This document shows positions 9,656 to 14,096 of a stretch of DNA of 64,000 nt, piece by piece. The DNA comes from Massalongia carnosa (taxonomy: Eukaryota): the NCBI GenBank assembly GCA_965645245.1, contig OZ287069.1:1426001-1490000 (forward strand). The letters run 5' to 3'. Both the position numbers and the translations under genes were made by a program. Position 1 is the first letter of the stretch, and every line of letters starts with the position of its first letter. The notes under the pieces were generated by a model that did no database searches, had not been told where the DNA came from, and was given only the letters and a program-made list of their open reading frames with translations.

Positions 9656-9780
9656 TTTTTTATTTATTTATTCATTTATGAGATGGTTCTATGTCACGTG
9701 AGGCCCCTGAGTCAAAGTAAATTAAGAATCACCCTCTGAAAATTCTTTCCTCATTCACTTCTTCTCACTCGGCCTCATCC

Positions 9781-9903
9781 ATCTCACTGACTCGTCGTCG
9801 ACCCCACGTTGTCTCGGTGCCCCTACCTCGCTGTCAGTGCTTGCTGCTTTTCCAATCTCACTGACTCGTCGTCGACCTCACGTTGTCTCGGTGCCCCTAC
9901 CTC
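9781..9903 (+). repeat. 49-bp direct repeat pair in the YR element 5' UTR
   Basis: ATCTCACTGACTCGTCGTCGACCYCACGTTGTCTCGGTGCCCCTACCTC at 9781-9829 and 9855-9903 (1 mismatch), ending 3 nt before the gag ATG. Confidence 0.92.
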
Positions 9904-9906
9904 CCA

Positions 9907-10919
9907 ATGACGAACACCCGTTCCCAAAGCACCTTGATGGACGACATAGTCCCCGACCCCCAGGAGATTGTCGGATTGACGCAGGCCCAATCTAATCAAA
10001 TCTTCGCCCTACAAAAGAAGAAAGCCGAGGCGGAAGCGAAGGCGGCCGAGGCTGAGGCTAGAATTGCCGAGTCCAAGGCATTGGTCGCCGAGAAGGAGGT
10101 GGAAAAATGCAGCTAGAAATCGACTGCATGCGCCGAGAATCTGACGCCCGAATAGCGGCCGTCATTCCTGCTGGCAAGCCGAGTCGTGTCGTCGGCGATG
10201 ACGACGAGGACCTAGGTGAGATCCCTCTCGAAGTAAGAAGCATAGCACCCCGTTTCGCGGGCCTACCACAGGACGAGATCATCAAGATCTTTTCAAATAA
10301 ATTCAAAGCCATCAACCTCTCCCGCCTCCGACACATGCACGGCATGCAATACGAGTCATACAAGGATCAAGACCGCATCGGCATCGAAGACGGCGCCTTG
10401 AGGTTGAGAAAGGCATCCGGGACCTACAAAGATTTCGGAAAGACAGTTCATGACGTCTGGACCGAGAGCTTCATCAACTACACCTCGATCATGGTCAGTC
10501 TTTTCGGGAAATCGAGTCAACAGCTTCACGCCACCATGTCGGCATTCCACGGAAAAATCCTCACGCTGGCCAAGGTGTACGAGTGGCAGGAAGCAGTCCT
10601 CCCCCTCGCCATCGAAACCCACACCTACATCATCGCGTCTCAGCCATCCGACGCATCCCAATGGAAAATGCCCGACGAATTCCAAGCTCGATTCTGCACC
10701 CCCCTCACAGTCCTACGCCGTCGCCGCTCACGATCCCCGCCATCCCGACGACCGACCCCGAGAGGAGACAGGGCCGAGAGGGCCGAGAAGGCAGCGGGGG
10801 AAATCTGCGACAAGTACAACAGCGGCACCTGCACCTGGCCGTCGTGCTACCGACAGCACAAATGCAAATCGTGCGGCGCGGCTGGGCATGGCCAGAAGAC
10901 ATGCCCAACGAAGAAATAG
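9907..10919 (+). CDS. YR retrotransposon Gag-like protein (coiled-coil N-terminus, CCCH and CCHC zinc fingers); one-base frameshift in an A-run at about 10103-10107
   Basis: ATG at 9907; the frames of ORFs 9883-10116 and 10107-10919 join if GGAAAAATG had one more A; C-terminal CDKYNSGTCTWPSCYRQHKCKSCGAAGHGQKTC. Confidence 0.82.
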
Positions 10920-12668
10920 GGGGTTGGTGCAGGAGGCAGTAGAATAGCTTCAATAGCTGAATTCATGACGTCCCATCCCTGCTTACCTGCACCAATCAGA
11001 CCAAATACAATCCCTTCGTTTCAACTCGTAGACGCATCTCGTCAGCGTTTGAAAGACAGCCCATCTCCCCTCGTACCGTCCGCATGGGCAACCCTACTTC
11101 AAGAGTATCCGGGCCCCCTCCGAGTCCATCTGCCCATGATCCTTCGTTTCGGAGTACAAATCGGATACGAAGGCCCCACAGACATCCTTCGGATCGAAAA
11201 AAATCTGACATCAGCGAATGAGGACCCGGAAACGATCGAGAATAAGCTTCAAGAGGACCTCAGGAAGGGCCGAGTCAGACGAATAGCCGCCCCGAGTCAG
11301 CCATTTGTGGCCTCCCCCCTCGGCTTGGTCCCGAAACATGACGGAGGATGGCGACGCATTCATCATCTGTCTCATCCCAATCAAACATCAGTCAACGACA
11401 ACATTCCAGAAGAGGCATCCAAATTACAATACGCCAGACTCGACGACATTATTCAATTGATTCTGTCAGAGGGCAAAGGTGCTGTCATAGTGAAAAGAGA
11501 CGTCAAAGACGCCTTTCGAAACGTTCCCGTCGCACCTCATCATCAATGGCTTCTGGGTTTCGGATGGAATGACGAATTCTACACCGAGACATGCCTTTCG
11601 TTCGGACTGTCGACGGCCCCGTTCATCTTCAATCTTTTTGCGGAAGGCTTTCATTGGATTTTGGAATCCTTTCTACAATGGAGATTACATCACTATCTAG
11701 ACGACTTCGTTGCAATTTTCCCATCCGAGACATCGTCAGAACGATTGCACCAAGAAACAAAAGCCTACAACATTCTCACCGACATTCTCGGCATCCCGAG
11801 AAACGACTCAAAAGACGCCGAGGGAACGACAGCGACAGTCTTCGGACTCGAGGTCGACACCATCAACAGTCTTATTCGTCTGCCAGCGGACAAGCTGGAA
11901 AAAGCGAGAATCATCACTACAAAGGCACTAAACGAGACGACAATCAGCCTCGGCGACATGCAGTCAATAGCGGGCTTCCTAAGCTTCTGCGCACAGGCAG
12001 TCAAATTGGGCCGAGTCTTCTTACGATTATTCTGGAATTTTATAGCCTCATTTCCCTCGGGCAGTCATCATCGGGTCAAAAGAAGAATTCCCACATGGGT
12101 CAGACAGGATCTCATCTGGTGGAACAAACTTTTAGTGGACTTCAACGGTATTGTCTTCTTCGAGATGTCAACACGAGACACGATCAAGGTGCATACGGAT
12201 GCATGCCTCACGGGTCTCGGAGGCTATTTTCAACAAGCCAACGAGCTCGTGAATCAAAAAAACGCATGTAGGGCCCGAGTCCTAGTCCTCAATCAGGAAG
12301 AAGCACCGAGCATAAACGTCCGAGAAGTCGAGGCTATCCTTCTAATCCTTCAGAAATGGGCGCCGACATGGCGACATCGACAGATCCTTGTCTTTACCGA
12401 CAGCAACACAGCATACACAGGATTCACGAATCTAACCCTCAAGGGACCGGCCAACGCGCCTCTACGAGAAATACTGTCCATAGCTGCAAAGTGGGACATC
12501 GTACTACGTTGTCAATGGATCAGTGGCACTTCCAATGGACTAGCAGATGCCCTGTCACGTTTTGATGATGAAAGATTGGCTAACTTTTGCCCTCATTGGC
12601 AGAACCCATACAATTCGATGAACCTCCCTCCACCTACCTATCCTCCACACCAGGGTCAGCCCTGGTAA
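10920..12668 (+). CDS. YR retrotransposon reverse transcriptase-RNase H (first ATG 10965; frame open from the gag stop)
   Basis: SPLGLVPK..WRRIHHLS, DVKDAF, LSFGLSTAP, HYLDDF; RNase H TDAC / E / TDS / NGLADALSR. Confidence 0.95.
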   Translation, partial: GVGAGGSRIASIAEFMTSHPCLPAPIRPNTIPSFQLVDASRQRLKDSPSPLVPSAWATLLQEYPGPLRVHLPMILRFGVQIGYEGPTDILRIEKNLTSANEDPETIENKLQEDLRKGRVRRIAAPSQPFVASPLGLVPKHDGGWRRIHHLSHPNQTSVNDNIPEEASKLQYARLDDIIQLILSEGKGAVIVKRDVKDAFRNVPVAPHHQWLLGFGWNDEFYTETCLSFGLSTAPFIFNLFAEGFHWILESFLQWRLHHYLDDFVAIFPSETSSERLHQETKAYNILTDILGIPRNDSKDAEGTTATVFGLEVDTINSLIRLPADKLEKARIITTKALNETTISLGDMQSIAGFLSFCAQAVKLGRVFLRLFWNFIASFPSGSHHRVKRRIPTWVRQDLIWWNKLLVDFNGIVFFEMSTRDTIKVHTDACLTGLGGYFQQANELVNQKNACRARVLVLNQEEAPSINVREVEAILLILQKWAPTWRHRQILVFTDSNTAYTGFTNLTLKGPANAPLREILSIAAKWDIVLRCQWISGTSNGLADALSRFDDERLANFCPHWQNPYNSMNLPPPTYPPHQGQPW

Positions 12669-13750
12669 AACGCCTCGTCTGGCACGGACACTCGGCGGAC
12701 ACGAGAAAAGGGTACGGGACGGCGATCGACTCATACGAGGCATTCTGCGCGACGACGGGACGCACGTCGTGGCCTGCAACAACCGAGTCCCTCGAGGAAT
12801 GGCTAGCCGGTCGACTATACGGGGGCGGCACACCCAAGCAGGGAAAGATAAAACCAGAGACGGCAGCGAGCTACCTCGCCGGCCTCAGATCATACCATGT
12901 AGACCGAGGATACGGCCTCACCCCATTCGAGGGGCCGAGACTTCAATTGATGCTGAAAGGGGGAAAAAGGATCTTTTCTCAGACAAAAAGAAGACGCCTA
13001 CCCATTTCAAAAGAATTACTGACAAAAATCACCAGTATTCCCGCTCATTCGGCCGAAGACCTCAACATCGACGCGACATTCAAAGTTGCATGGGCAGGGT
13101 TCCTCAGACTCGGGGAAATCACCTACACTGTCGCTGATCGTAAGAAGACATCTTTTCAGAGATTGAAACCTACACGAGGTGACATCTCATTCGCCGAGAA
13201 CGATCAATACGCGACATTACGTCTCAAAAGAAGCAAAACAGACACAAATCACTCAGGAGTTCAGATAGTGCTGGCAGCGACCAATGAGAGCACTTGCCCC
13301 GTGACAGCACTACGGCGTCTTTTCAGAAATGATCCTCAGCCATCTACATCCCCGCTTTTTCGTCTCGGCACCGCATTCACCAGAGCCTCCGTCATAGCAT
13401 CCCTGAAAAAGAGACTGATAGCCGCCGGCATCAACGACTCGGCATACTCGGGACACAGCTTCAGAAAAGGAGCAGCACAACACGCCGCCGACCACGGGAT
13501 GCTGGATGAGAGTATTCAGAGACTCGGAAGATGGTCATCAAACGCGTTTCAGCTATACTTTCAGACGTCCCAGGCCTCACTATTCAATTTGAACCTCAGT
13601 TTTCAAAAAGGCATCCCTCTGGCAGTCCCACGTGCTGTCGTCGCCGAGACGAATCCTACAAACTCCTACCCCTACTCAATTGGGCATTCCATTGGGCGTA
13701 CAGGTCAACCAGGGCATCGATCCGGAGCGCCGCCGGGCACCTCCATCTAG
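12587..13750 (+). CDS. Tyrosine recombinase of the YR retrotransposon (no upstream ATG; probably reached by splicing)
   Basis: Catalytic set FLR, LKRSKTD, GHSFR, GRWSS and LY intact; SAM-like N-terminal region (YLAGLRSYH); overlaps the RT ORF by 82 nt. Confidence 0.95.
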   Translation: MPSLAEPIQFDEPPSTYLSSTPGSALVKRLVWHGHSADTRKGYGTAIDSYEAFCATTGRTSWPATTESLEEWLAGRLYGGGTPKQGKIKPETAASYLAGLRSYHVDRGYGLTPFEGPRLQLMLKGGKRIFSQTKRRRLPISKELLTKITSIPAHSAEDLNIDATFKVAWAGFLRLGEITYTVADRKKTSFQRLKPTRGDISFAENDQYATLRLKRSKTDTNHSGVQIVLAATNESTCPVTALRRLFRNDPQPSTSPLFRLGTAFTRASVIASLKKRLIAAGINDSAYSGHSFRKGAAQHAADHGMLDESIQRLGRWSSNAFQLYFQTSQASLFNLNLSFQKGIPLAVPRAVVAETNPTNSYPYSIGHSIGRTGQPGHRSGAPPGTSI

Positions 13751-14096
13751 ATCATCGCCGTCGGGCACTGCCGTCGGGCATCATCTATCGGATCGTTGAG
13801 CGTCAGCAGACGCCTCGGGCCTAGAAGATGAGGTTCTCACCTCAGCACCGACCCCGAGTCACGTGCCTAGGCCTGCCCGGGCTGACCTGTGTCGTTCCCA
13901 TGCCCAATCAAATTCAAGCATTCAAATCAATTCATCCAATTAAAAGCCCCCCCCTAGCGCAAGCGAAGGTAACGGCACCGATAAGGGTCATAGAAGTGTA
14001 TGCAACCTAAGATTATGACACTGAATCATTTTTATGATATGTTTCTGATTTATAAATCAGATCAATCGGAAAATCTGCGATCTTTAGGAAGGAAGA

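Follow-up and report, generated by a model that had tools for sequence, protein, structure and literature searches.

Ngaro elements are retrotransposons that encode Gag, a reverse transcriptase-ribonuclease H (RT-RNase H) and a tyrosine recombinase (YR), have no methyltransferase and, as described in the available text of four papers (PMC3783388, PMC8547959, PMC7192593, PMC13465315), carry split direct repeats arranged around their open reading frames (ORFs) as A1-[ORFs]-B1A2B2. In the accessible text of the survey by Muszewska et al. 2013 (PMC3783388), a single ascomycete Ngaro is reported, a truncated element of Neosartorya fischeri without terminal repeats that was placed on an early branch, "Ngaro 3". 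Later work by that group (Krysinska et al. 2026, PMC13465315) assigns Ngaro mostly to basidiomycetes and mucoromycetes. How the overlapping ORFs of YR retrotransposons are expressed is apparently unsettled, judging from the accessible text of a DIRS-1 study (PMC7192593). A full-text literature search yielded no report of readthrough or of recombinase splicing in Ngaro or other YR retrotransposons; the founding papers (Goodwin & Poulter 2004, Poulter & Goodwin 2005, Poulter & Butler 2015) lay outside that search, and the available text of Muszewska et al. 2013 (PMC3783388) nowhere mentions introns, splicing, readthrough or stop codons. Both devices are combined in murine leukemia virus (MuLV), which, according to the available text of PMC5778647, makes pol by readthrough of the gag UAG codon and env from a spliced RNA.

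Here we describe a Ngaro-like element of about 4.3 kb in a 64-kb stretch of DNA from assembly GCA_965645245.1 of Massalongia carnosa (contig OZ287069.1, positions 1,426,001 to 1,490,000; hereafter the window). The element lies at about window positions 9684..14002 on the forward strand, as do all of its features given below, and is the only copy in the window. An earlier annotation, hereafter the original prediction, had described a near-intact Ngaro-like retrotransposon in an ascomycete and had proposed that one transcript yields Gag, Gag-RT by UAG readthrough and Gag-YR by splicing. The comparisons below point in the same direction. We estimate at roughly 75% the probability that the element is a recent insertion belonging to a multi-copy Ngaro-lineage family of a lecanoromycete-like ascomycete, expressed by readthrough of the gag UAG codon and by splicing from gag to YR. 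Relatives are designated X for public sequencing runs, L for metagenome loci and P for database proteins; the metagenome loci, 79 in number, were recovered by an RT profile search at 34-52% identity.

The YR ORF (12584-13750) occupies the -1 frame relative to RT-RNase H, overlaps the tail of the RT ORF by 85 nt and has no ATG ahead of the catalytic core; most related loci likewise have a YR ORF without a usable ATG. An intron is predicted to connect this frame to gag. The predicted 5' splice site, GTGAGA (10216..10221), lies within gag, and exon 1 would end at 10215 on the first base of a Gly codon, in phase 1. The predicted branch point, CTAAC (12580..12584), contains the TAA stop that opens the YR frame and is followed by a predicted CAG 3' splice site (12600..12602), with exon 2 starting at 12603, also in phase 1. 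Removal of the 2387-nt intron (10216..12602) would take out gag downstream of the donor together with its stop, and RT-RNase H in its entirety. The donor and the acceptor agree in phase, the G at 10215 joining the AA at 12603-12604, and the predicted product, for the form of gag with six A residues in the run discussed below, comprises 103 Gag residues, 1 junction residue and 381 YR residues, or about 485 amino acids (aa).

Both ends of the predicted intron are conserved among relatives. Donor-like phase-1 sites were found within 45 nt of the position homologous to 10216 in 34 of 36 testable loci, where chance would give 0.024 per locus. These donors mostly read G/GTGAGA, G/GTAAGA or G/GTGAGT (the slash marks the splice position), and a single donor-like site in another phase occurs in the intervals searched. 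At the exact position, the other two loci read GTGAGC and GTACGG, again in phase 1, so that a phase-1 GT is present in 36 of 36. At the start of YR, CTRAY plus a phase-1 AG is present in 59 of the 61 loci with a YR N terminus (49 distinct sequences). The YR frame always opens at a stop within a conserved word, GCTAAC, GCTAAT, GCTGAC or ACTAAC, which fits the fungal CTRAY branch-point consensus, and TGGCAG usually stands 15 nt after this word. The 3' splice sites of the 59 loci are CAG in 50, TAG in 6, AAG in 2 and GAG in 1, all in phase 1. The CTRAY-AG signal persists in a distant clade despite a different RT-frame peptide.

What is conserved at the acceptor is the nucleotide sequence. The codon that precedes RAY has CT as its last two bases throughout (GCT in 42 loci, ACT in 15, TCT in 2). 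Ala has four codons and yet is always encoded here by GCT, and the RT-frame residue that follows is Asn or Asp in every case, exactly those compatible with CTRAY. TGGCAA never occurs at the acceptor, and L045 and L065 have TGGTAG, which keeps YAG while ending RT there. Over the first 60 nt after the acceptor, differences number 129 at YR third positions versus 94 and 47 at the other two, counted in 44 pairs that are not independent. The predicted intron combines a GT donor, a CTRAY branch point, a YAG acceptor and matching phases with the joining of two ORFs, as expected of a spliceosomal intron. The 10215/12603 joint does not occur among the listed contigs of four runs; these contigs are of unrecorded kind, and its absence there has no bearing on expression.

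Alternatively, ribosomes might shift into the -1 frame within the RT/YR overlap and so synthesize YR as part of Gag-RT-YR, with no splicing. Such a scheme would fit the -1 position of YR relative to RT, which is seen in 52 of 57 loci, and the overlap of the two ORFs in nearly all of them. However, the overlap in the window (12584-12668) has no slippery heptamer of the form X XXY YYZ, none is conserved in the aligned region, and the overlap is merely 19 nt in L045 and L065. CTRAY-AG is moreover in phase with YR in six loci whose YR/RT frame relation differs (L029, L030, L031, L060, L071 and L079), which frameshifting cannot explain, and the matching phase-1 donor in gag would have no role. We therefore regard frameshifting as very improbable. 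Production of Gag-YR by splicing, as originally proposed, is predicted from sequence and is strongly supported by the conserved donor (34/36), the conserved CTRAY-AG (59/61) and the existence of database proteins in which YR starts at the junction.

These proteins were found by searching with the YR exon and examining the best 150 representatives, four of which carry 60 to 135 non-RT residues N-terminal to YR. P0470 (255 aa) aligns to YR query residue 2 at its residue 102, behind 101 N-terminal residues. Residues 63-104 of this protein align without gaps to the window Gag up to and across the donor (E value of 0.008; a second stretch, 0.003), and the number of residues between Gag "..DL" and YR "EPP" equals that predicted for the window. 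P0402 (324 aa) aligns to L009, L015 and L006 from the junction codon of the predicted acceptor onward. P0485 (513 aa) and P0441 (497 aa) are full-length proteins of more distant lineages with N-terminal extensions of 100-135 aa, and the N terminus of P0485 has weak similarity to gag in L033, L005 and L007 (E values of 0.003-0.009). In P0416 and P0439, YR is fused to RT in one ORF, indicating that other lineages use other arrangements.

The RT-RNase H ORF (10920..12668; 582 codons, ending in TAA) lies in the gag frame directly behind the gag stop, TAG (10917..10919), whose next base is G and which is the proposed site of readthrough. The arrangement was compared in the 40 loci, window included, in which gag precedes RT. 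The two ORFs lie in one frame in 37 of them, and exactly one in-frame stop separates them in 32 (TAG in 18, TGA in 10, TAA in 4). The base after this single stop is C in 20 loci, G in 11, A in 1 and T in none; the next codon is CAA or CAG in 15 of the 32, and AA precedes the stop in 21. Several loci read TAG-CAA-TTA, the readthrough context of tobamoviruses and yeast. The window has a different context, TAG, then G and a conserved G/T-rich run, which is found also in L018, L024 and L045. When the 100 nt from the stop were folded and compared with shuffles, an extended hairpin was predicted just 3' of the window stop (10920..10998; minimum free energy, -35.4 kcal/mol; z, -3.55; equaled by 1 of 200 shuffles). 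L024 has a similar long-range stem (z, -2.77), L068 folds likewise (z, -2.91), and L005 is weaker (z, -1.85). A stable structure downstream thus tends to accompany stops that have G as the next base. The fold is not significant in the CAA-type loci L006, L029 and L012, as would be expected if the hexanucleotide context suffices. The automatic gene models of the Talaromyces and Penicillium proteins P0100 and P0103 place a small intron over the gag stop; the same solution was considered for the window and rejected, there being no plausible donor near 10917.

RT-RNase H might alternatively be translated alone, by reinitiation, by leaky scanning or from a separate RNA, in which case the frame shared with gag would be incidental. 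The window has an in-frame ATG at 10965, 15 codons after the gag stop, and of 24 loci whose conserved RPNT motif could be located, 7 also have an ATG between the stop and this motif. Such an ATG is absent from the other 17, however, 37 of 40 loci keep the same frame, 32 of them with exactly one stop, and the stops are enriched for C or G at +4, for CAA or CAG as the next codon and for a preceding AA. In L026, moreover, gag and RT are fused outright. A separate start for RT is thus improbable. Gag-RT synthesis by UAG readthrough, the second element of the proposed scheme, is strongly supported by conservation of the frame, of the single stop and of its contexts; this combination of a shared frame, a single conserved stop and a stimulatory context is what programmed readthrough is predicted to require.

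The copy in the window has a defect that bears on all of these products. gag is predicted to run from the ATG at 9907 to the TAG at 10919 (9907..10919; 337 aa, with a CCHC zinc knuckle at 10863..10904 in its translation), and gag homology was detected by tblastn in 40 related loci. In the window this ORF is broken by a frameshift and split over two frames, 9865-10116 and 10062-10919, at a run of five A's (10103..10107). Contigs of X1, X2, X3 and X6, the four runs that were mapped, all insert an A behind 10102 and have six. The run lies upstream of the splice donor, so Gag, Gag-RT and Gag-YR are all interrupted; the window copy would be disabled for all three products and mobile only with proteins from intact copies.

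The missing A could also be a homopolymer error of the assembly, leaving the window copy fully intact. Every contig over the site has six A's in 4/4 runs, and X2 contains the left junction of this very insertion (9316-9702, zero differences), so that the same or a close strain is possible. On the other hand, contigs lose rare variants, and one five-A copy among many six-A copies would go unseen; at least seven other private substitutions also mark the window copy as a distinct, slightly diverged one. The listed base differences against all four runs are at 9993, 10626, 10742, 12070, 12166, 12238 and 12303, a lower bound, as 65 further difference rows exist. An assembly error is accordingly possible but doubtful, and the single-base lesion noted originally is real relative to the other copies.

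Other features speak to the age of the insertion. The stretch is present in 14 public runs from 12 studies, and eight of these runs contain at least half of its sampled words. Summed contig depth over the element is far above that of the flanks in X1 and X2, where depth is not to be equated with copy number, and clusters at 99% identity hold 59 member sequences for RT and 54 for YR. The flanking gypsy-like and LINE-like (long interspersed nuclear element-like) sequences show many more differences per kb from their other copies than the Ngaro element does. Each of them is broken into several ORFs, which agrees with the earlier description of the neighboring elements as decayed. By these comparisons, the window copy is a young member of a multi-copy family. 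The near-identical copies in X1-X14 come under 12 different coded organism labels, and the same fungus, close species or horizontal spread could each account for them. In one X2 contig, 9853 is followed directly by 13693, with the intervening 3839 nt missing, at a depth of ~3060 versus 10-20 thousand for the element; it may represent an internally deleted, non-autonomous derivative of ~0.5 kb.

The boundaries of the element were taken from public-run contigs mapped on 8800-15000 and from depth. Contigs of X3 and X6 share a left boundary at 9684. On the right, the X6 contig no longer matches beyond 14002, the X3 contig stops at 13978, and depth in X1 and X2 falls within the bin 13975-14181. These shared boundaries and the fall in depth revise the span first given, 9690..13930, to about 9684-14002, leaving a 5' untranslated region (UTR) of 9684..9906 and a 3' UTR of 13751..14002. 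The 3' UTR contains neither a copy of the 5' end nor an internal repeat. An exact-seed repeat search detected no direct or inverted repeats of at least 14 nt linking the element ends and no long terminal repeats (LTRs), and Smith-Waterman comparison of the 5' with the 3' region on both strands, and of the 3' region with itself, gave nothing above shuffles. The sole repeat in the element, a 49-nt unit, occurs two times in the 5' UTR (9781-9829 and 9855-9903, 74 nt apart), and its number differs between copies, X2 skipping 59 nt at 9842-9902 and X3 adding 17 nt behind 9901. Tandem repeats with a period of 74 nt likewise occur in the 5' UTR (57-216) of L026, a relative with 47% identity.

This could nevertheless be an ordinary Ngaro element whose A1-B1-A2-B2 repeats are missing or misassembled in the window copy. 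That arrangement is clear in L063, L067, L055, L066 and L035, and L026 has the B pair, so split repeats are found in both major RT clades; Logan contigs, in addition, break at repeats and tend to obscure repeat structure. Yet no repeat of 14 nt or more links the ends, and the contigs of other runs also start at 9684 and end or diverge at 13978-14002, where depth drops in X1 and X2. B repeats are absent, too, from L002, a relative whose contig covers 3 kb of downstream flank, and the N. fischeri element, in the accessible text of PMC3783388, is likewise reported without terminal repeats. We consider missing or misassembled repeats decidedly improbable. The original prediction had found neither split direct repeats nor inverted terminal repeats (ITRs), and this absence holds up and is not a private truncation, since the same boundaries recur in other runs; the sublineage of the window apparently has no split direct repeats.

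Some further observations concern the ends. The contigs L011, L051, L076 and L077 are circularly permuted (YR, then gag, then RT), and many related contigs (L011, L045, L051, L076, L077, L078 and others) are either permuted or begin and end with the same 115-190 nt. Such contigs would be produced by split direct repeats, by tandem copies and by circular DNA alike. The right flank in X6 starts, after 14002, with the same 7 bases as the left end of the element, which the right flank in the window does not; these bases could be a 7-bp crossover core for recombination or a matter of chance. A 16-nt near-repeat, 9675-9690 versus 14031-14046 (14/16 matches, 29 nt past the right end), was tried as a target duplication and dropped, as 12 of 200 shuffles equaled it. 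No contig joining 9683 to 14003, as an empty site would, is among those listed for four runs.

Several points weigh against the reading that we favor, namely readthrough and gag-to-YR splicing in a Ngaro element without terminal repeats. Introns in fungi are typically far shorter than 2.4 kb. The related loci lack independence, since many are close kin and RT similarity was the basis on which all were collected. gag and RT lie in different frames in 3 of the 40 loci, and readthrough as a uniform rule is contradicted by L026, which has no stop between gag and RT, and by four loci with several. The ATG at 10965 and its counterparts in 7 of 24 relatives belong here too, as does the fold downstream of the stop, which is not significant in L018 and L045 despite their window-like stop context. 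Among the fused proteins, the first part of P0470 has no match to Gag residues 1-65, and the N termini of P0402, P0441 and P0142 have no match to gag at an E value of ≤0.05. In P0142, a coiled-coil N terminus is joined to YR 36 residues further in than predicted, which may reflect an alternative acceptor or a deletion. The fused proteins may derive from RNA, from gene models or from processed DNA, any of the three being a possible source. Finally, the scheme does not account for the completion of replication by an element without terminal repeats.

The coding content places the element with Ngaro. Pfam searches identified RVT_1 (1.7e-12; ~11328-11762), RT_RNaseH (1.1e-4; ~12177-12413) and Phage_integrase (1.6e-3), the latter two below their own cut-offs. 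No methyltransferase family was matched at an E value of ≤0.01 in any ORF of the element, and no aspartic protease or DDE integrase (rve) was among the Pfam matches of these ORFs; since the YR frame opens inside the RT-RNase H tail, there is no room for a methyltransferase domain. The YLDD motif of RT and the D/E/D/D residues of RNase H are present in the window, in columns that are invariant or nearly so in a 32-sequence alignment. In the YR coding exon (12603..13750; 381 aa plus stop), the catalytic residues R168, K211, H284, R287, W310 and Y318 (codons at 13106, 13235, 13454, 13463, 13532 and 13556) are invariant among 20 sequences, and a search with the YR profile recovered Cre recombinase, the match taking in Arg-I, HxxR and Trp. 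The original prediction had credited gag, RT-RNase H and YR with all catalytic motifs, and CCHC, YLDD, D/E/D/D and R-K-H-R-W-Y are present.

The RT query matched 366 homologous proteins at an E value of ≤1e-3, the best beyond the 99% cluster having 57% identity; named matches come from Talaromyces stipitatus, Penicillium subrubescens and Aspergillus fischeri, at 43-44% identity. A quick maximum-likelihood RT tree groups the window with P0002, P0010 and P0018 (Shimodaira-Hasegawa-like approximate likelihood ratio test [SH-aLRT] support, 99). This group is nested in a 50-row clade that holds the three named ascomycete proteins, and a second clade, of 19 rows, is more distant. ESM Atlas neighbors of the RT are unnamed RVT_1 clusters, mostly from Mollusca, Basidiomycota and Cnidaria, which is compatible with a YR retroelement and not decisive. 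Two RT homologues, P0057 and P0082, are labeled as bacterial metagenome-assembled genomes (MAGs; Chloroflexi and Terrimicrobiaceae), and P0057 is identical to L034 in the tree; both are probably eukaryotic contigs mis-binned into bacterial MAGs.

Like Ngaro elements, the window element has the order gag, RT-RNase H, YR and no methyltransferase, protease or DDE integrase; unlike them, the window copy, and apparently its whole family, is without split direct repeats. RT relatives at 36-46% identity do carry A1-B1-A2-B2, and the earlier assignment to a Ngaro-like element without methyltransferase agrees with both gene order and domains. Because the coding features of Ngaro are present and members of the clade have split repeats, we class the element as a variant within Ngaro despite the missing repeats. 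Gene order and domains support its assignment as a Ngaro-lineage YR retrotransposon, for which the RT clade shared with repeat-bearing relatives and with proteins of A. fischeri (syn. N. fischeri), the species of the published ascomycete Ngaro, is indirect evidence. The statement, in the original prediction, of a single ascomycete remnant is borne out by the accessible text of PMC3783388, which reports one truncated Ngaro, in N. fischeri. That element resembles ours in its ascomycete host, in having RT, RNase H and YR and, in the available text, in having no reported terminal repeats. The window RT shares 43% identity, over 95% of the length, with P0107, a protein of A. fischeri that falls in the same 50-row clade and may correspond to the published locus. 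At 43% identity the two represent different families, and the window element differs further in being full length, multi-copy and nearly intact. DIRS1-like and PAT-like elements are also YR-encoding retrotransposons with overlapping ORFs. DIRS1-like elements, however, have a methyltransferase and ITRs with an internal complementary region, and PAT-like elements have a methyltransferase and split direct repeats; the window element has none of these.

We propose that one transcript, starting in the 5' UTR, would serve as both genomic RNA and mRNA. Unspliced, it would yield Gag (337 aa) and, by readthrough of the gag UAG codon, Gag-RT-RNase H of about 920 aa. A fraction would be spliced from the gag donor (exon 1 ending at 10215) to the acceptor at the end of the RT ORF (exon 2 starting at 12603), and this mRNA, translated from the gag AUG, would give the ~485-aa fusion, with Gag residues 1 to 103 ahead of the recombinase. 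Circularization and integration of the cDNA would presumably follow, carried out by the recombinase, which the Gag portion may deliver to the complex of Gag and cDNA. The actual use of the signals, the amounts of the products and the mechanism of integration are the parts of this scheme that we infer.

The scheme resembles that of the gammaretrovirus MuLV in that the pol equivalent would be made by in-frame readthrough of a gag UAG codon with a G after the stop and a structure downstream, and a second product from a spliced subgenomic mRNA. Unlike MuLV, the window element has no protease, DDE integrase, env or LTRs, and the likeness is one of expression logic, with no evolutionary membership implied. 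The spliced product also differs, here being the integration enzyme fused to the Gag N terminus, and many relatives of the window element use the CAA-type stop context instead of a structure.

The host assignment rests on the ATP11 ORF of the window, which has one unnamed match at 99% identity; all named matches that follow are from Pezizomycotina, at 55-66% identity, and mostly from lichen-forming Lecanoromycetes (Lobaria, Pycnora, Alectoria, Dirinaria, Heterodermia, Imshaugia and Circinaria). This agrees with the ascomycete host originally proposed. Other genes in the window encode an NF-X1/R3H protein, a Pho80-type cyclin and a protein with SesA, NB-ARC and TPR domains, an architecture typical of filamentous ascomycetes. 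The last is an intact ORF of 829 aa (27169-29658, forward strand; SesA, NB-ARC and TPR_10/TPR_12) in transposon-rich surroundings, which we read as a putative fungal NLR-type gene. To the left of the Ngaro element, a gypsy-like element in several ORFs (RVT_1, RNase H and integrase) occupies 2251-5678, and the immediate left flank of the insertion (9210-9655) is a gypsy-like RT fragment, 78-85% identical to the RT of that element. Directly downstream lies a LINE-like element (14088-17340, forward strand) with a 453-aa ORF1 containing zinc knuckles, an endonuclease ORF and further broken ORFs; other LINE-like copies in X1 and X2 match from about 14120.

A wider proposal would be that a widespread branch of fungal Ngaro elements, some of them in ascomycetes, combines retrovirus-like readthrough with a kilobase-sized intron that places the recombinase on the Gag N terminus, and that the sublineage of the window has lost the split repeats presumed necessary for replication and regenerates its ends in another way, possibly through a 7-bp core; we hold the chances of this being correct to be about even. 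The apparent lack of terminal repeats challenges the accepted replication model of the Ngaro group. A young multi-copy Ngaro family in a lichen-type ascomycete stands against the one remnant in the 2013 survey of the phylum, and relatives of it occur among the proteins of Talaromyces, Penicillium and Aspergillus and, in greater number, on metagenome contigs. Conservation of the donor, branch point and acceptor eases annotation of these elements, whose ATG-less YR ORFs are currently miscalled. The 79 relatives provide a concrete and testable model of expression. If the model is true, a Gag-fused recombinase made from a spliced RNA would be new among retroelements and would represent convergence with retroviral expression.

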